From NCBI GenBank assembly GCA_041690515.1, contig JAWLHF010000001.1, forward strand, positions 1-62,050: 62,050 nucleotides of DNA. The letters run 5' to 3'. This stretch comes from Clostridiaceae bacterium. Its GTDB lineage: Bacteria > Bacillota > Clostridia > Lutisporales > Lutisporaceae. Made by a program: the position numbers and the translations under genes. Positions 989 through 51,616 of this stretch are shown one piece after another (the first letter of the stretch is position 1; the number at the start of each line of letters is the position of its first letter). The notes beneath the pieces are model-generated. The model was given only the letters and a program-made list of their open reading frames with translations, ran no database searches and was not told the origin of the DNA.

Positions 989-1013
989 GAAAATGCGACT
1001 GTGTCGCATTTTC
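989..1013 (-). terminator. Hairpin immediately after the stop codon of the small ORF 1014..1355
   Basis: The minus strand reads gaaaatgcgac-acag-gtcgcattttc, a 10-bp stem. The U-tract is only partial. Confidence 0.4.
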
Positions 1014-1355
1014 CTACTGTTCTTCAACAGCCTCTTTTTCCTTTTCCTTTCCGAAAAGTTTTTTTCGCAGGTCCGGATTAAAGAAAATAATGAGTAAAGC
1101 AGCCCAGAGCCACCAGTTGTTGTTCTCGAAGATATTGCCCACCAGTCCGTTAAGCATACCACCGAGCTGTTCCATTGAGGGGACAGCACCGGGGGGGACA
1201 GGCTCTTGCGGTGGTGCTGGAGCCGGAGCAGGGGCGGGTGGCTGCTGCTTTCTTGCATTCTTATAGAATATTCCCGAAAAATCTTCCGGTGGTTTTGCCG
1301 ACCCTCAGCCGGGATTGGGTACTCCGCTCAAGCCGCGGTTAAAACCTCTCGCCAT
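1014..1355 (-). CDS. Small Pro/Gly-rich protein with a C-terminal tiny TM segment (NNNWWLWAALLIIFF), interrupted by an in-frame TGA at 1305-1307 (codon 17); candidate Sec/readthrough ORF or pseudogene
   Basis: A strong RBS (aGGAGGTg) lies 5 nt before the ATG at 1355. Translation is MARGFNRGLSGVPNPG-TGA-GSAKPPEDFSGIFYKNARKQQPPAPAPAPAPPQEPVPPGAVPSMEQLGGMLNGLVGNIFENNNWWLWAALLIIFFNPDLRKKLFGKEKEKEAVEEQ-TAG. The frame stays open for 96 sense codons after the TGA and ends at a hairpin. The ORF is not in the supplied track because of the TGA. Confidence 0.45.
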
Positions 1356-1506
1356 AATCGCACCTCCTTCTGCAGAAGAGGTTGTTCATCATCCTATTTC
1401 CATTGTATGTAATATTGTTCATATGGTTACTGCCTGGGGCATTATGGACAAAACCAAATTGAAACATAAGAGGCAAAATGGTAAGCTATAGGGTAGGAGG
1501 CGATAT

Positions 1507-2761: not shown

Positions 2762-2779
2762 CGAAATATGGAGGTAATT

Positions 2780-3145
2780 ATGACTGCTGAAAAAACAAGA
2801 ATAGAAAGCTGTAGCTGCTCTTACATTCATGAAGAGGTTGTGATGAAGGTCAGAGAAACCATGCCTCAGGAGGAGACTCTTTATGATCTGGCCGAGTTAT
2901 TCAAGGTTTTTGGTGATAGTACAAGAATAAAGATATTATGTGCATTGTTTGAATCTGAGATGTGCGTATGTGACATAGCTGCACTGCTGTCAATGAACCA
3001 ATCTGCCATATCACACCAGCTCAGAGTTCTAAAACAGGCCAGACTGGTGAAATACAGAAAAGAAGGAAAAGTTGTATATTATTCTCTGGATGATGATCAT
3101 GTTAAGCAGATATTCGACCACGGTCTTGCGCATGTAAACGAGTAA
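2780..3145 (+). CDS. cadC: ArsR/SmtB family metalloregulator, CadC-like (Cd/Pb/Zn sensor type)
   Basis: Winged-helix motif (ELFKVFGDSTRIKIL, SAISHQLRVLK), an alpha3 CVCD motif plus N-terminal Cys residues (ESCSCSY) as in CadC. The GGAGG inside the upstream ATG favours the start at 2780. Confidence 0.8.
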   Translation: MTAEKTRIESCSCSYIHEEVVMKVRETMPQEETLYDLAELFKVFGDSTRIKILCALFESEMCVCDIAALLSMNQSAISHQLRVLKQARLVKYRKEGKVVYYSLDDDHVKQIFDHGLAHVNE

Positions 3146-3180: not shown

Positions 3181-5349
3181 GTGAGAAAAATTGAATCAGA
3201 GAAATTCACTTCAAAAGAAGATGAATATGTGCTAAGCAACTATATGCTGGAAGGTCTTGGGTGAGCCAACTGCGCAGCCAAGATGGAGCTTGGCATAAGA
3301 TCCCTGGATGGGGTCAGAAATGCTTCGATCGATTTTGTTACAAAGAGATTAAGGCTTGAGACATATAAGAGTGCTGACAGAGAAAGCTTGATGAAAGAAG
3401 TGAAAGATGTCATTGAAAGGATAGAATCCCATGTGAGGCTTGAAGCTGCAGCAGCATTGGAGAAGGGTAAAACAGCTTCGGAGGCAGAAAGTGTATTGGA
3501 TAGCCATAAACATGAGCTGATGAGGATAGCAGCCGGTGTACTGATACTCTTAGTAGCAGTGCTTTTAAAATTCCCTGAGGGTATTGAGTTAGCATTGTAC
3601 CTGCTCTCATATTTTATTGTCGGCGGAGAAGTGCTTATTAGATCCATAAGGAACATTGCAAAAGGACAGGTTTTTGATGAGAATTTCCTTATGAGTCTGG
3701 CTACCGTTGGTGCCTTTGCCATAGGTGAGTATTCAGAAGGTGTAGCTGTTATGCTTTTTTACCAGGTTGGCGAGCTGTTCCAGGATATGGCTGTAAATCG
3801 CTCAAGAAGGTCGATAAAAGCATTGCTGGATATACGTCCTGATTATGCGAATCTTTACACTGAGGGCAGGCTGGTGCAGGTATCCCCGGAAGCTGTGCAT
3901 GTGGGGGCTAAGATAATAGTGAAGCCGGGAGAGAAGATCCCGCTGGATGGCAGAATAATCGACGGAAGGTCAATGGTGGATACATCTGCCCTGACAGGGG
4001 AGTCGGTACCTAGAGGTGTAGATATCGAGGATGAGGTATTGGCCGGTTTTATTAACAAGAATGGAATGCTTACTGTGGAAGTGACCAGGGAATACGGGGA
4101 GTCCACTGTATCCAAGATACTTGATATGGTGCAGAATGCCAGCAGTAAGAAGTCACCTACGGAAAACTTCATCACGAAGTTTGCCAGGTACTACACACCT
4201 GTAGTTGTATTTACAGCCCTAGTCCTTGCAATTATACCGCCGCTGGCGGTACCGGGGGAAGCATTTAATGACTGGATATACAGAGCATTGATCTTTCTGG
4301 TGGTTTCGTGTCCCTGTGCTCTTGTAATATCCATACCCTTAGGATTTTTTGGAGGGATCGGCTGCGCTTCAAGGAATGGAATACTGATAAAGGGAAGCAG
4401 CTATCTTGAAGCTCTTAATAATATAGATACAGTTGTTTTTGATAAGACAGGAACGCTTACCAAAGGAGTCTTCAAGGTAGCAGAGGTCAAAGCAGTAGGA
4501 GGAATAAGCGGAGAAGAACTGCTCAAATACTCGGCATATGCCGAAAGCTGCTCCACTCATCCCATAGCAGTATCAATTATCAGGGAATATGGAAGAGAAA
4601 TAAAGGCTGAAGAGATTTTGGACTATGAGGAACTGCCGGGTTATGGGGTCAGCGCAACAGCTGAGGGAAGAAAGATAGTTGTCGGCAATGCAAGAATGAT
4701 GCAGAAAGAAAATATAGGATACAAAGCGGTGGATACTATAGGGACAGCAGTGCATGTGGTCATAGATGGCGAATATGCAGGATATATCACAATTGCTGAT
4801 GAGATAAAGGATGATGCTGAGACAGCAGTACGGCTCCTGAAGGATACCGGAGTCAGAAGGACTGTCATGCTTACAGGTGATGTAAGGACTGCAGGGGAGA
4901 AAGTAGCGGAAAAGCTTGGAATTGATGAGGTTTACTCAGAGCTCTTGCCGGATCAGAAGGTGGAAAGGTTGGAAGCGATAGAAAAGGATAAGAGGTCCGG
5001 AGGCAGGATTGCTTTCGCAGGAGACGGGATAAACGATGCTCCTGTCCTGGCAAGAGCTGATATAGGCATAGCAATGGGAGGTCTTGGTTCTGATGCGGCT
5101 ATTGAAGCTGCTGATATTGTGATTATGACTGATGAACCCTCCAAAATAGCAAGCGCCATAAAGATCGCAAAGAGAACCAGGAGGATAGTATGGCAGAATA
5201 TACTGCTTGCCATGGGGGTAAAAGGAATTGTGCTGATTTTGGGAGCGGGTGGAATTGCGACTATGTGGGAAGCGGTTTTTGCCGATGTAGGCGTCGCCCT
5301 AATAGCTGTACTGAATTCCATAAGGGTATTGAACCAGAAAAATATATAG
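3181..5349 (+). CDS. cadA: Heavy-metal (Cd/Zn/Pb-type, CPC) translocating P1B-type ATPase. The N-terminal HMA domain carries TGA (3262-3264) in place of the first Cys of the CxxC motif (candidate selenocysteine, or nonsense mutation with restart at ATG 3283)
   Basis: GTG at 3181 sits 8 nt after GGGGG. The frame is open from 3181 to 5349 except for the TGA. Translation is ...YVLSNYMLEGLG-TGA-ANCAAKMELGIRSLDGVRNASIDFVTKRLRLET (HMA fold). Core motifs present: SCPCALV, FDKTGTLT, GDGINDAP. Confidence 0.85.
3277..3294 (+). promoter_or_regulatory. SECIS-like hairpin 12 nt downstream of the in-frame TGA
   Basis: GCCAAG-AUGGAG-CUUGGC is a 6-bp stem with a 6-nt G-containing loop. The spacing from UGA is compatible with bacterial SECIS geometry. 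This is not proof, because the hairpin is short. Confidence 0.35.
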
Positions 5350-5853: not shown

Positions 5854-5914
5854 TACTGTAATTAATTACCATTGAATTGGTAATTAAAATTGCTTAAAAT
5901 ATAGACAAGCTGTA

Positions 5915-6030
5915 CTGGTGGCTTAATCCCGAAAGGGAACGGGGGATATTCATGAGGTGAAAGGCGGCACCTGGGGGGACCGCCTGGGGCATACTCTCTG
6001 TCCTAACCTGTCAACTAACCTCGTAAGCAA
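5915..6030 (+). promoter_or_regulatory. Candidate c-di-AMP (ydaO/kimA-type) riboswitch
   Basis: GCTTAATCCCGAAAGGGAACGGGGGA...GGTGAAAGGCGGCACCTGGGGGGACCGCCTGGGGCA...CTAACCTCGTAAGC. The 5' GCUUA pairs with the 3' UAAGC, and ACGGGGGA, CCGCC and CUGGGG blocks are present as in the ydaO motif. It lies upstream of a cell-wall protein gene, a typical context. Confidence 0.6.
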
Positions 6031-6103
6031 ATATAATGTAGAATACAATGCAGATGTGATGTCATTGGGCTTGTGCATTATATGTTGAAAGGAGAGTCAG
6101 TAT

Positions 6104-6862
6104 TTGAAGCCAGGAAAAATTCTAGTATTTTTACTTGTTGTGGTGCTCTGCACTTCATCTGTCACCTTTGCCGATGTACTCAAAAACGGCAGCAGGGGTG
6201 AAGAGGTGAAGAAGCTCCAGACTGAGTTGAAGAAAAAAGGCTATTTTACAGCTGGAGTAACAGGCTACTTTGGTAGTTTGACGGAAGCAGCGGTGAGAAA
6301 GTTCCAAACCAATAGCAAGCTTGCAGTTGACGGAGTGGTTGGAGTAAAAACATCAAAAGCCCTTTTCGGAACATCGGGGACAAGCTCCGGAAAAGTAGAG
6401 CTGCTGGATTGGTGGACCGGTGCATCCAAGGTTTTCAAAATAGGAATGACAGCGAAGGTTACCGATGTAAGAACAGGCAAGACCTTCAATATCGTACGTA
6501 CATATGGCGGCAATCATGCTGATTGTGAGGCCAAAACCACATCGGATTCTAAAAAGATTAAAGAGATCTGGGGCGGCTGGAGTTGGACACGTAGACCGGT
6601 GGTTCTGGAGGTCGACGGACGAAAAATTGCGGCATCAATTGCTGCAATGCCTCATGCAGGGGTAGACAGCTCGCCTGCCAACAAAACCATAAGCAGCAGA
6701 AGCGGTGGTTATGGCAAAGGTGCAAACCTTGACAAAATAAAGAATAATGGTATGAGCGGAGTAATAGATGTACACTTCCTCAACAGCAGAACCCATGGCA
6801 CAAACAAAGTTGACAGCAAACATCAGGCTGCAGTAAAAGAAGCAGCTAAAAACGGTAAATAG
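6104..6862 (+). CDS. Secreted peptidoglycan-binding domain (PG_binding_1) protein with an uncharacterised C-terminal domain
   Basis: TTG start after AAAGGAGAG, a signal peptide, and the motif GSRGEEVKKLQTELKKKGYF...VDGVVGVKT typical of PG-binding repeats. Confidence 0.7.
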   Translation: MKPGKILVFLLVVVLCTSSVTFADVLKNGSRGEEVKKLQTELKKKGYFTAGVTGYFGSLTEAAVRKFQTNSKLAVDGVVGVKTSKALFGTSGTSSGKVELLDWWTGASKVFKIGMTAKVTDVRTGKTFNIVRTYGGNHADCEAKTTSDSKKIKEIWGGWSWTRRPVVLEVDGRKIAASIAAMPHAGVDSSPANKTISSRSGGYGKGANLDKIKNNGMSGVIDVHFLNSRTHGTNKVDSKHQAAVKEAAKNGK

Positions 6863-7457: not shown

Positions 7458-7700
7458 TTACAGTCCGCCAAAGCCAAAGGTTCTTCCAAAACCGCCAAAG
7501 GCGATTATTGCCAGTATTATGATGAAGAAGAAGCTGTTGTCGATACCCCAGGTAGGACCTGCTGCCAGTAGTATGAACAACAGGAGCAGAAGCAGAAAGC
7601 CGTTGCCTTCACATCTTCCTCCAAAGGGAGATACTGCTGATCCAGGCAGGCAGCCGGCTGCTGCAACCCCGGGATTGATTCCTCCATAACTATTTGCCAT
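7458..7700 (-). CDS. Tiny-TM (YjcZ-like) small membrane protein, paralogue of 8113..8343
   Basis: RBS GGGAGG. Translation is MANSYGGINPGVAAAGCLPGS...GFLLLLLLFILLAAG...FFFIIILAIIAFGG. The GF(L/A)LxxxLFILL core resembles tiny sporulation TM proteins. Confidence 0.65.
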   Translation of the reverse strand: MANSYGGINPGVAAAGCLPGSAVSPFGGRCEGNGFLLLLLLFILLAAGPTWGIDNSFFFIIILAIIAFGGFGRTFGFGGL

Positions 7701-7794: not shown

Positions 7795-7953
7795 CTATAC
7801 TAACAGGAAGAACGCTGTCAAAGCTAAAAAGTCTAGGGTGCTTCTATAACGCGGATAACCGTATCCATAGCCATAACGTGGATAACCATATCCATAACCA
7901 TAACGCGGATAACCATATCCATATCCGTACCTGTATCCATAGCCGTAAGGCAT
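7795..7953 (-). CDS. Unannotated 52-aa Gly/Tyr-repeat protein with a hydrophobic tail
   Basis: RBS GGAGGTG lies 6 nt before the ATG at 7953. Translation is MPYGYGYRYGYGYGYPRYGYGYGYPRYGYGYGYPRYRSTLDFLALTAFFLLV-TAG. Three 27-nt tandem units encode GYGYGYPRY. The ORF is shorter than the ORF-track cutoff. Confidence 0.6.
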   Translation of the reverse strand: MPYGYGYRYGYGYGYPRYGYGYGYPRYGYGYGYPRYRSTLDFLALTAFFLLV

Positions 7954-8112: not shown

Positions 8113-8343
8113 TCAACGGCTTAGCCCAAAGGCTTTGGATACACCCCCAAGGCCAATGACAGTCATTATAATAATAAAGAAATAGCTGCTGTTTAATCCC
8201 ATTGCAGGGCTTGCAGCAAGTAAGATAAAAAGAAGCAATAAGATCAGGAACTCATCATTTCTGCAAGCCTTTTGCACTGTAACTTCAGAGGGAACAGTAT
8301 ATCCTGAATTGCAATCAAGACCCCTGCTGAACCTGCGTGCCAT
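8113..8343 (-). CDS. Tiny-TM (YjcZ-like) small membrane protein
   Basis: RBS GGAGGTG before the ATG at 8343. Translation is MARRFSRGLDCNSGYTVPSEVTVQKACRNDEFLILLLLFILLAASPAMGLNSSYFFIIIMTVIGLGG. It is collinear with 7458..7700. A terminator-like hairpin plus T-run lies at about 8063-8090. Confidence 0.65.
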   Translation of the reverse strand: MARRFSRGLDCNSGYTVPSEVTVQKACRNDEFLILLLLFILLAASPAMGLNSSYFFIIIMTVIGLGGVSKAFGLSR

Positions 8344-8530
8344 ATTTTCACCTCCAGTATATTGCATAAGCAGATCTCTTTGGCCGTATATTCTTCTCAA
8401 TTATATACTATGTACATACTCAGGTTTGGTTACCCCATGGCATGCTAATATTGCTGTAAGGAGGGTGTATATTGGTAAGAGAGAATAATAACAAGCAGCC
8501 TCTCAAATTGTTAATTTATGATAAAACTAT

Positions 8531-8712: not shown

Positions 8713-8771
8713 TGTTTGCATAACATAAACAGTGTGTGTCAGCAGTACAAAAGCACGAATGGAGGAAAACT

Positions 8772-9407
8772 ATGGATATACTGTCAATTATACTGATAGC
8801 TGTTGGCCTTTCTATGGATGCCTTCGCTGTATCGGTGACAAACGGGATTATCATAAGGGATTTGAAGGCAGGACATGTCTTGAAAATCGGGCTTTACTTC
8901 GGTGCATTTCAGGCAATTATGCCTCTGATTGGCTGGCTTGCAGGTTTTCAATTCAAGGATTACATAGTGACTATAGATCACTGGATAGCTTTTGGATTGT
9001 TGGCGATACTGGGGGTCAAGATGATACACGAAGCTTTTGGTGAAGAAATGGGGGAGGAAGCAGTAAAAGAAGATATGTGTGAAGTAGCTATATCCACCCA
9101 GGGTACAGTATGTGAGAGCCCTTTAAGGAAAGGAAGACTGCTGGTACTTGCAGTGGCCACCAGCATTGATGCCCTTGCTGTTGGCATCAGCTTTGCTTTT
9201 CTGCAGGTATCAATTGTTCTTTCAGCATTGGTAATAGGATTGATTACCTTTGGGATATGTTGTGCAGGAGTATGCATAGGCAACAGATTTGGAGGCCTGC
9301 TGAAAAAGAAAGCGGAGATAGCAGGGGGACTTATATTGATAAGCATTGGACTTAAGATACTTCTGGAGCATACGGGATTTATTTATAAAATTATATCTGT
9401 ACTATGA
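8772..9407 (+). CDS. mntP: Manganese efflux pump MntP
   Basis: N-terminal sequence MDILSIILIAVGLSMDAFAVSV...GAFQAIMPLIGW and the repeated SIDALAVG half-domain. RBS GGAGGA. TGA stop. Confidence 0.85.
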   Translation: MDILSIILIAVGLSMDAFAVSVTNGIIIRDLKAGHVLKIGLYFGAFQAIMPLIGWLAGFQFKDYIVTIDHWIAFGLLAILGVKMIHEAFGEEMGEEAVKEDMCEVAISTQGTVCESPLRKGRLLVLAVATSIDALAVGISFAFLQVSIVLSALVIGLITFGICCAGVCIGNRFGGLLKKKAEIAGGLILISIGLKILLEHTGFIYKIISVL

Positions 9408-9433: not shown

Positions 9434-9542
9434 CTCTTCATAATTTCTTCATAGTATTTCGGTAGAATCAAGGATAATATGGAATACAAACGCATTCCAA
9501 TATGGATTTCGGATGGAGAATATATCTGGGGGGAAGTGTCGT

Positions 9543-10955
9543 ATGAAAATAGCGAAAATTGTACTGAAGGTTGAAGACATGACCTGTACCGGCTGCGAAG
9601 CAAGGATAGAGAATGAGCTGAAAAAGCTGGAGGGTGTGGAGAAGATAAAGGCAGAATACGCAAAAGCAAAGGTAATTGTCACATATAATTCAGATAAGAT
9701 AAGTGCGAGGGACATCATACAAGGTATTGAAAGAGCGGGATACAAGGGGTATGACCATGAGAAGAAGCCTGCCGGCGGAGTCTTGCAGTCCGGGGAGAAC
9801 ATGAGCCAGCTGTTAGGTATAGGAGTAATAATGGCGGCTCTTTATGTCATTATTAATAATACCATCGGCTTTAACTTCATACCCGAGGTGAATCAGTCCA
9901 TGGGGTATGGGATACTGTTTGTGGTTGGGCTTCTTACTTCCTTGCACTGTATTGCAATGTGCGGTGGGATAAATCTCTCCCAGTGCATTAATTACAAGCA
10001 TACTTCAAGCTCAGGTACCGGCAGTATGAAGCCGGGGTTGTTGTACAATACTGGCAGAGTGGTATCTTATACCGTAATCGGAGGCATAGTCGGAGGTATA
10101 GGTTCGGTTGTCAGCTTCTCGGGAAGTGCGAAGGGTATCGTAGCAATAATTGCAGGTTTATTTATGATTGTAATGGGAGTAAACATGCTTGGTATTTTTC
10201 CATGGCTCAAAAGATTCAATCCCAGAATGCCCAAGATATTTGGTGAAAAAATATATGGAAGCAGAGGGAAAAACGGTCCTTTTTATGTAGGACTTCTGAA
10301 CGGCCTTATGCCCTGCGGCCCTCTGCAGGCAATGCAGCTATACGCACTTGGTACCGGAAGCGTGATCTCAGGAGCAATGTCTATGTTTTTCTTTAGCCTT
10401 GGAACAGTTCCGCTGATGCTTGGCTTTGGAACAGTAATCACAATGTTTGGCAAGAAGCTGAGCGGAAGGCTGATGAAGGTAAGCGCCGTACTGGTGGTGG
10501 TGCTCGGAGTCATAATGATGAGCAGGGGTATGATGCTTTCGGGAGTCAATACGACTTTTGCAGATGCGCCTGCCAGCGGGAATATTGCTGTTGTAAGAAA
10601 TGGTATACAAGAGGTATCCATTGACCTTAAACCCAACAGATATGATCCTGTGGTTGTACAGAAAGGGATTCCTGTAAGATTTATAATTAATGCGGAAGCC
10701 GAAAATATAAACGGATGCAATAATGCAATAATAATACCGAAGCATAATATACAAAAAGCTTTGATGCCGGGAGAGAACATCATTGAGTTCATACCTGAGG
10801 AAACAGGCACTGTTCCTTATTCATGCTGGATGGGTATGATAGGGAGCAGCATAAAGGTTGTTGAAGATCTGGCTCAAGTCACAGAGAAAGATATTGAAAG
10901 TGCAGAGGCAGGTGTGGTTCCCGGAGGCGGAAGCGGAGGCTGCTGTGGATTTTAA
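9543..10955 (+). CDS. Three-domain metal protein: N-terminal HMA (MTCTGCE), a polytopic DsbD_2/TauE-SafE-like membrane core (LHCIAMCGG ... LMPCGPLQ), a C-terminal cupredoxin-like domain (YSCWMGMIG) and a GGSGGCCGF tail
   Basis: The domain motifs are read directly from the translation. The start at ATG 9543 follows a GGGGGGAAG RBS. Confidence 0.75.
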   Translation: MKIAKIVLKVEDMTCTGCEARIENELKKLEGVEKIKAEYAKAKVIVTYNSDKISARDIIQGIERAGYKGYDHEKKPAGGVLQSGENMSQLLGIGVIMAALYVIINNTIGFNFIPEVNQSMGYGILFVVGLLTSLHCIAMCGGINLSQCINYKHTSSSGTGSMKPGLLYNTGRVVSYTVIGGIVGGIGSVVSFSGSAKGIVAIIAGLFMIVMGVNMLGIFPWLKRFNPRMPKIFGEKIYGSRGKNGPFYVGLLNGLMPCGPLQAMQLYALGTGSVISGAMSMFFFSLGTVPLMLGFGTVITMFGKKLSGRLMKVSAVLVVVLGVIMMSRGMMLSGVNTTFADAPASGNIAVVRNGIQEVSIDLKPNRYDPVVVQKGIPVRFIINAEAENINGCNNAIIIPKHNIQKALMPGENIIEFIPEETGTVPYSCWMGMIGSSIKVVEDLAQVTEKDIESAEAGVVPGGGSGGCCGF

Positions 10956-51462: not shown

Positions 51463-51616
51463 ATACAATCCTTGATGGTACTAAGGAACTCCGCCTAAGA
51501 AAAACCTAACGCTTTCAAATCGTCATCCTTGACTCATGAAAGCTCGCTCGGCGTCCATGCCTCGCGTACGGTTGTTTCTAAGGCTGCGTTCCTAAGTACC
51601 ATTGGCAAGTCTTGTA
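51463..51616. repeat. Long imperfect palindromic element between the regulator gene and the transporter operon
   Basis: The ~44-nt arm ATACAATCCTTGATGGTACTAAGGAACTCCGCCTAAGAAAAACC pairs with GGTTGTTTCTAAGGCTGCGTTCCTAAGTACCATTGGCAAGTCTTGTAT. The central part contains GCTTTCA..TGAAAGC. Confidence 0.75.

Follow-up and report, generated by a model that had tools for sequence, protein, structure and literature searches.

What does a bacterium make of a gene whose reading frame is interrupted by a TGA and continues for almost a hundred codons beyond it? The question is raised by a small open reading frame (ORF) on the minus strand of contig JAWLHF010000001.1 (assembly GCA_041690515.1), from a spore-forming Clostridiaceae bacterium, of which we analyzed the first 62,050 nucleotides (hereafter the window). 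The small ORF starts at an ATG (1355-1353), runs for 16 codons to a TGA (1307-1305), and stays open for another 96 sense codons (GSAKPPEDF...EEQ) up to a TAG (1016-1014). We conclude that the ORF from 1355 to 1014 is one gene, encoding a protein of around 113 residues. Comparison with its relatives points to a genuine case of a conserved, recoded TGA in an unannotated family of small proteins. We regard the gene as a candidate for a new selenoprotein family in which codon 17, the TGA, would be decoded as selenocysteine (Sec), a reading to which we give a probability of roughly 0.55. Sec seems the most likely residue to be inserted, and we discuss below the alternatives to this view.

The TGA is conserved in a narrow family of small proteins

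The layout of the gene is the one proposed in an initial annotation made from the sequence alone: a strong Shine-Dalgarno sequence precedes ATG 1355, and the TAG is directly followed by a hairpin of -15.8 kcal/mol (Table 1). Also confirmed was the lack of an internal start supported by a ribosome-binding site: from the TGA to the conserved C-terminal part, a single ATG, GTG, or TTG occurs in frame, the ATG at 1175, and no Shine-Dalgarno sequence precedes it. The argument from chance fares less well. It had been thought that such a long open frame was unlikely in an AT-rich background, but the G+C content of the window is 42.9%. By our own calculation, the chance of 96 stop-free codons at this composition is about 0.3%, and stops are rare in all three frames of the Pro-rich stretch, which makes the argument weak on its own. 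What decides the matter is the conservation of the TGA in 18 homologues. TGA is not generally reassigned in this organism, since, of the 48 open segments in the window that reach 200 codons or more, 13 end at a TGA as their ordinary stop. Two homologues of the small ORF also use TGA as their own terminal stop.

A protein search with the readthrough protein identified 25 relatives, all of them unnamed proteins from metagenome assemblies of Clostridia. At the DNA level, we compared 10 species-representative genomes, 15 full-length metagenome loci (18 were returned), and 11 further contigs. The TGA occupies the identical position in 18 distinct homologues, which stem from different assemblies and represent different species-level genomes. 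Its context in these is invariably MARGF...[NK]PG-TGA-x-P, encoded around the TGA as CC[CT] GG[CAT] TGA; the base that follows is either G or A, and the N-terminal peptide that precedes it has 10, 13, 16, or 19 residues among homologues. Part of the family is present in the databases as truncated gene calls that start just past the TGA (P0004, P0009-P0013, P0017, P0018, and P0020). Scans with Pfam and NCBIfam, including the NCBIfam selenoprotein models, assigned no family to the readthrough protein, nor to three neighbouring tiny proteins, and Rfam at its gathering thresholds gave no match at the locus. When 1.84 billion representative proteins were searched with a profile, three true members of the family and one spurious repeat protein (P0026) were recovered, with no distant relatives and no Cys forms. 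From these searches, the family appears to be narrow and to lack a Cys form. In one relative (L010, 5001-5356), a Pro-rich segment of the small ORF is duplicated and a frameshift follows in the C-terminal core; either the assembly is wrong there or the gene is a true pseudogene in this genome, we presume.

Both sides of the TGA are coding and in one frame

The ratio of non-synonymous to synonymous differences (pN/pS) is 0.096 over MARGF and the three codons that precede the TGA, and 0.135 over the C-terminal core, with pS values of 0.32 and 0.64, respectively. The linker from the TGA to the LGGM motif occurs in eight lengths, between 138 and 168 nt, every one of them a multiple of three, and its C content is 49%, 56%, and 17% at codon positions 1, 2, and 3. 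This codon periodicity and the lengths in multiples of three imply that the linker is translated in this frame. In the homologues that lack the TGA, a single uninterrupted ORF spans both parts in the same frame. Among the options that had been left open for this locus, these data support recoding, be it by Sec or by readthrough: the TGA is conserved, both of its sides are constrained, and the frame is kept over eight linker lengths.

A hairpin lies at a fixed distance from the TGA

It had been reported that only stems of 3-4 bp follow this TGA. We find a 6-bp hairpin there, at 1289-1274, starting 15 nt after the TGA, which is a candidate for the core of a selenocysteine insertion sequence (SECIS). 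Its 4-nt loop starts with a G and lies 21 nt from the UGA. In all 18 TGA forms, the spacer between the TGA and the motif CC[GU]GAA...UU[CU][CA]GG has exactly 15 nt, and the five codons within it vary freely; insertions and deletions in the spacer are confined to the forms without TGA. Of the 18 TGA forms, 17 have a hairpin of 6-7 bp, with energies between -5.9 kcal/mol, the value of the gene studied here, and -10.3 kcal/mol when folded over 24 nt. The exception, L036, reaches merely -2.2 kcal/mol. There are two pairing registers, CCGGAA-NNNN-UUYCGG and CCUGAAG-NNN-CUUCRGG, and the variants of the encoded motif (PEVSSG, PEDSSG, PEDVPV, and PENFSG) preserve or improve the pairing.

We compared this geometry with the bacterial SECIS (bSECIS) model, whose energy cut-off is -7.5 kcal/mol (PMC13188914). 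Loop (GAUU or GAUG), stem (6-7 bp), and spacing (21 nt) conform to the model in 17 of the 18 forms. A model-conforming hairpin at -4 kcal/mol or better follows 8.1% of the 2,556 TGA triplets of the window; under the same scoring, the site of the small ORF has -4.3 kcal/mol, and the accepted site in the neighbouring cadA gene (see below) is at nearly the same level with -4.7 kcal/mol. When codons were randomised synonymously, the observed mean of -7.2 compared with -4.1 for the randomised sequences (random means from -2.3 to -5.9), which is a modest excess. Among the forms without TGA, only 4 of the 7 computed have the hairpin, and that of L041 is gone by inspection. Overall, the hairpin seems to track the TGA, and we count this in favour of Sec. 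As a SECIS, it would recruit SelB, loaded with Sec-tRNA, to a ribosome positioned at the UGA.

Table 1. Positions of the sequence elements of the small ORF and of the TGA of cadA, in window coordinates.
Feature	Position	Strand	Remark
Promoter-like element: GTAACC (1430-1425), 15 nt, CATACAAT (1409-1402)	1402..1430	minus	sigma-K-type resemblance
Shine-Dalgarno sequence AAGGAGGTG	1369-1361	minus	5 nt upstream of ATG
N-terminal 16 codons MARGFNRGLSGVPNPG	1308..1355	minus	MARGF and 3 pre-TGA codons constrained (pN/pS 0.096)
Possible 5-bp helix CCGGC/G(U)CGG (CCGGC/GCCGG), TGA in 5-nt loop	1298..1312	minus	90% of cells paired
In-frame TGA, candidate selenocysteine codon 17	1305..1307	minus	invariant in 18 distinct homologues
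Pro/Ala-rich linker, translated, poorly conserved, predicted disordered	1176..1304	minus	codon periodicity; pLDDT ~50
Hairpin CCGGAA-GAUU-UUUCGG, candidate SECIS core	1274..1289	minus	begins 15 nt past the TGA
Conserved C-terminal part QLGGMLNGLVGNIFENNNWWLWAALLIIFFNPDLRKKLFGK, hydrophobic helices, probable membrane segment	1017..1175	minus	pN/pS 0.135; predicted helices
True stop codon TAG	1014..1016	minus	
Terminator hairpin GAAAAUGCGAC-aca-GUCGCAUUUUC	989..1013	minus	-15.8 kcal/mol, z = -3.7 vs shuffles
TGA of cadA at first Cys of GxxCxxC HMA motif	3262..3264	plus	heavy-metal P-type ATPase

A canonical UxxC site in the neighbouring cadA gene

We favour Sec over other kinds of recoding because the adjacent cadA gene has a canonical UxxC site and because the SECIS-compatible hairpin of the small ORF lies at a fixed 15 nt. 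In cadA, the sequence around the TGA reads ...LEGLG-TGA-ANCAAKME. With a Cys written at the TGA, the N-terminus of the protein is recognized as an HMA domain (36.9 bits for a cut-off of 24.8), and the whole protein matches TIGR01525. This P-type ATPase family, with a UxxC motif, is listed among the selenoproteins (PMC13188914). The cadA gene has its own hairpin, GCCAAG-AUGGAG-CUUGGC, 12 nt past the TGA. More than 12 relatives (loci within L003-L039) have conserved this TGA, whereas L029/L030 have TGC in its place. Since this TGA sits at a Cys of a recognized selenoprotein family, these organisms probably decode Sec.

The small ORF and cadA are associated across loci. All loci that hold both a TGA-type small ORF and cadA have the TGA in cadA (at least 12 distinct sequences, including L036 and L039), and no TGA-type small ORF was paired with a Cys-type cadA among the loci compared. 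The sole lineage with a Cys-type cadA, L029/L030, has TGC in cadA and TCA in the small ORF. The cadA cassette is lacking in L001, L002, and L009, yet these keep the TGA of the small ORF, as well as the flanking genes for a 127-residue protein and a peptidoglycan-binding protein. Because the cassette is an insertion that these three loci lack, the proximity of the two TGA codons is positional and not demonstrably functional. The pair of TGA-interrupted ORFs within 2 kb that was stressed initially occurs in many genomes; in these three, the small-ORF TGA occurs without cadA.

The TGA is replaced by Ser, Arg, or Leu and never by Cys

The initial annotation had suggested that the TGA forms a Cys/Sec pair with a tiny transmembrane (TM) protein, encoded at 7700, whose Cys17 aligns with it, and had noted a resemblance of the N-terminus to this protein and to another one encoded at 8343. 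BLASTP gives no significant match to the 7700 protein (E = 0.92), even when a Cys is written at the TGA. The resemblance to the 8343 protein stands for MAR.F.RGL alone (7 of 9 residues, E = 0.008). Among 20 homologues of the latter, position 11 is C, Y, H, S, P, N, or V, so Cys11 is not conserved. With a non-significant alignment in one case, and a short shared motif and a variable Cys in the other, we rejected both proteins as partners of a Cys/Sec pair.

The true homologues without TGA give no place to Cys either. The replacement codons are TCA in L029 and L031 (Ser), CGA in L034 (Arg), and TTG in L033 (Leu); the segment was rebuilt and is longer in L041, and it is absent from L004/L022, L007, and L008. 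Of these four sense codons, three differ from TGA by a single step, and neither Cys codons nor TGG occur. Hence, the relatives have the TGA in 18 homologues, Ser, Arg, Leu, or a deletion elsewhere, and Cys nowhere. In a rough neighbour-joining tree of the core, the forms without TGA are scattered among those that have it, which suggests that the TGA was lost several times independently. Since Ser, Arg, Leu, or the loss of the segment are tolerated, the selenol would not be an indispensable catalytic residue.

Observations that weigh against selenocysteine

A number of results weigh against Sec, and these explain why our confidence in it is not higher. Some concern the site. The absence of Cys from all homologues compared is unusual, since nearly all selenoproteins have Cys homologues (reviewed in PMC13188914); such homologues are a usual feature of selenoproteins, if not a strictly defining one, and this family has none. 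In L031 and L004, the TGA of cadA is kept and that of the small ORF is lost, so the latter is dispensable in a user of Sec. The TGA also lies in a disordered and poorly conserved region, which is an unusual location: pN/pS is 0.74 over the 18 codons that follow it, and the predicted local distance difference test (pLDDT) score is below 50 around it in an AlphaFold model. None of selA, selB, selC, and selD is among the approximately 40 ORFs annotated in the window, where ARAGORN detected no tRNA at all, including the tRNA for Sec.

Other results concern the hairpin. Neither pairing register shows covariation, by RNAalifold or by pair counting, and the hairpin of the gene itself is weaker than the -7.5 kcal/mol cut-off of the model. 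The hairpin is also retained in several forms that lack the TGA (the 4 of 7 mentioned above). The per-sequence p values of the synonymous randomisation range from 0.001 to 0.70, and much of the hairpin is a consequence of encoding the PEDFSG motif. The region does not fold more stably than shuffled sequences do (z = -0.54). This last test lacks power because the accepted Sec site of cadA is likewise unremarkable (z = -0.77).

The comparison with known bacterial selenoprotein genes that have their SECIS within the ORF reflects this balance. The small ORF shares with them an in-frame UGA that is conserved and flanked by coding sequence, a small hairpin in the downstream range of 16-37 nt, and a place in anaerobic Clostridia, here with a canonical Sec site at 2 kb. 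It differs from them by having Ser, Arg, Leu, or a deletion in relatives and no Cys homologue, by the location of the site in a disordered tail instead of a redox or metal motif, and by a weak hairpin without covariation in a protein that matches no Pfam or NCBIfam model.

Alternative explanations for the TGA

The alternative that survives best, although we consider it well behind Sec, is a leaky stop that works independently of Sec. Under this hypothesis, RF2 would mostly end translation at the UGA, releasing a peptide of 10-19 residues, and a minority of ribosomes would read through with a near-cognate tRNA such as tRNA-Trp. A small hydrophobic sporulation protein would in this way be held at a low or condition-dependent level, and the identity of the inserted residue would be irrelevant. 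This fits with a site that accepts Ser, Arg, Leu, or a deletion and never Cys, and that lies in a disordered, fast-evolving region. The Pro-Gly before the stop is conserved down to third positions (CC[CT] GG[CAT]), and in E. coli a Pro or Gly at the C-terminus makes termination less efficient. In Bacillus subtilis, UGA has a measurable leakiness and is decoded as Trp at a low level, and the A1 protein of phage Q-beta is another example of UGA readthrough. As in such systems, the in-frame UGA would yield a short and a longer product, with no importance of the inserted residue. Moreover, a GC-rich helix may enclose the UGA: over the 18 homologues, two of its pairs have one double change each, and controls in which the helix was slid reach at most 47% of paired cells (compared with the value in Table 1). 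The lack of covariation in support of the hairpin as a SECIS also fits with a leaky stop. However, known readthrough systems are not tied to Sec-using genomes and have no known need for a hairpin at a fixed distance. A leaky stop leaves unexplained why the spacing of the hairpin is invariant at 15 nt and why the TGA forms are restricted to the company of a Sec-type cadA. The UGA is followed by G in some forms and by A in others, and TGG is never among the replacements. To our knowledge, bacterial chromosomal genes very rarely have a conserved UGA that is read through in a programmed way without Sec, and we know of no conserved chromosomal example in Clostridia.

It is rather unlikely that the locus consists of two cistrons, with a leader ORF of 16 codons (MARGFNHGL...PG-stop) behind the strong Shine-Dalgarno sequence and a downstream ORF translated by termination-reinitiation just past the stop. 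The codon after the TGA is a possible start in a fraction of the forms, GTG in 7, ATG in 1, and ATT in 2 of the 18, and gene callers begin many homologues at this Val or Met (the truncated calls listed above). Yet, the other 8 forms have GAG, GCG, GGG (in the window), GTC, or ACA at this position, with no other supported start before the conserved core, and GTG may simply encode Val, given that Val, Ile, Ala, and Thr occupy the same position in forms without TGA. These forms fuse both parts in frame, and in the paralogous 8343 family the same N-terminal motif is covalently joined to the rest of the protein.

Finally, a fresh pseudogene, one of the options raised initially, or a base-call or assembly error, by which the 53-residue ORF at 1175-1014 or nothing at all would be expressed, can be discarded with near certainty: the protein has no known function and the codons just after the TGA are weakly constrained, but the same TGA is found in 18 diverged sequences from independent assemblies, there is purifying selection on both sides of it (pN/pS of 0.10 and 0.135), including the N-terminal part, and the frame is kept over the eight linker lengths.

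Expression and nature of the protein

The element GTAACC-N15-CATACAAT upstream of the gene and the approximately 45 nt of leader are conserved in all homologous loci. The pattern TAACC-N14-16-CATAnnAT has two matches in the window for 0.15 expected, both on the minus strand (1402-1429 and 8405-8432), and the second precedes the 8343 tiny-TM gene. Sigma-K promoters have AC at -35 and, about 16-17 nt further on, -10 boxes of the CATATAAT or CATAnnnT(A) type (PMC3789822). The promoter-like element of the small ORF resembles this type, which is active in the mother cell late in sporulation, and the gene is thus probably transcribed at this stage and in this compartment. In the conserved leader (1361-1385, minus strand), the sequence CCUCUUC is complementary to the Shine-Dalgarno sequence GAAGGAGG and could sequester it in a hairpin; the fold is weak and no better than shuffles (-7.6 kcal/mol, z = -0.12).

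The full-length protein would have three parts: the conserved motif MARGFNxGL at the N-terminus, a Pro-rich linker that is disordered, and a conserved C-terminal part of hydrophobic helices. In the AlphaFold model of a homologue (P0003), the N-terminal 57 residues are disordered and helices span residues 58-75, 79-90, and 92-99, with pLDDT of 70-84; this combination of disorder and helices offers no fold usable for a structure search. The core WWLWAALLIIFF, followed by RKK, in the C-terminal part suggests a membrane segment and hence a membrane location.

The 8343 tiny-TM family (MARRFSRGL...) shares with the small ORF the N-terminal motif MA+.F.+G[LI], the promoter-like TAACC-N15-CATAnnAT, a small size with a hydrophobic C-terminal half, and a narrow taxonomic range. 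In contrast, the C-terminal parts of the two families are unrelated in sequence, and no member of the 8343 family has a TGA; its Cys11 is variable, and the family does not provide a Cys counterpart to the TGA. A 52-residue ORF made of YGYGYP(R) repeats separates the two tiny-TM genes (7795-7953, minus strand). It matches no family, and its composition is like that of Tyr/Gly-rich spore-coat proteins.

Other features of the window and of related loci

The cadA gene is part of a metal-handling neighbourhood that also includes genes for an ArsR-type regulator (2768-3145), MntP (8736-9407), and a 480-residue protein (9513-10955, plus strand). The last one has an N-terminal HMA domain (MTCTGCE, with Cys and not Sec), a membrane part, and a C-terminal GGCCGF, and it weakly matches NCBIfam models of metal-binding (seleno)proteins.

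Between cooS and the small ORF, a GC-rich palindrome, GGGCGGCCATTGGCCGTCC, gives rise to mirror-image ORFs containing "RTANGRPY" on both strands (656-870). It is probably a repeat or terminator element rather than a gene. Two RNA families were identified elsewhere in the window: a cyclic di-AMP riboswitch (5910-6045, plus strand, 69.6 bits) upstream of the gene of a SleB-like peptidoglycan-binding protein (6104-6862), and a match to the TwoAYGGAY family (51470-51607, minus strand, 50.3 bits for a gathering score of 43).

In related loci, a gene encoding a 192-residue protein is a recurrent downstream neighbour of the small ORF, either directly adjacent or just past cooS (L001 5338-5916, L002 5378-5956, L009 5366-5944, L029 12398-12976, and L034 1095-1673). 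The two copies that were scanned (L001 and L002) have a weak match to the HD domain.

Significance of a recoded TGA in this family

If the TGA is decoded as Sec, the role of this residue may lie in metal chemistry, in cross-link chemistry, or merely in the gating of translation. We tentatively consider, at some distance from being convinced, that the UGA, located in the disordered tail of a small membrane protein specific to sporulation, is kept as a translational gate and not for the chemistry of the selenol. Synthesis of the full-length protein would then depend on the supply of selenium and of Sec-tRNA, or on the competition with RF2, and an unrecoded UGA would release the conserved peptide of 10-19 residues. 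A gate of this kind would explain why Ser, Arg, Leu, or a deletion are tolerated alongside selection for the TGA in most lineages.

If confirmed, these genes would represent a new selenoprotein family that has been hidden by annotation, since the databases hold just N-terminally truncated "hypothetical proteins" starting past the TGA. Pipelines that discover selenoproteins from Cys/Sec pairs cannot find it because it has no Cys counterpart. The place of Sec would be unusual, in the disordered tail of a small and probably sporulation-specific membrane protein, and would point to a non-catalytic or regulatory use of this residue. If the inserted residue is not Sec, the family would be a case of a bacterial chromosomal gene with a conserved UGA that is read through in a programmed way, which would be rarer and more interesting.

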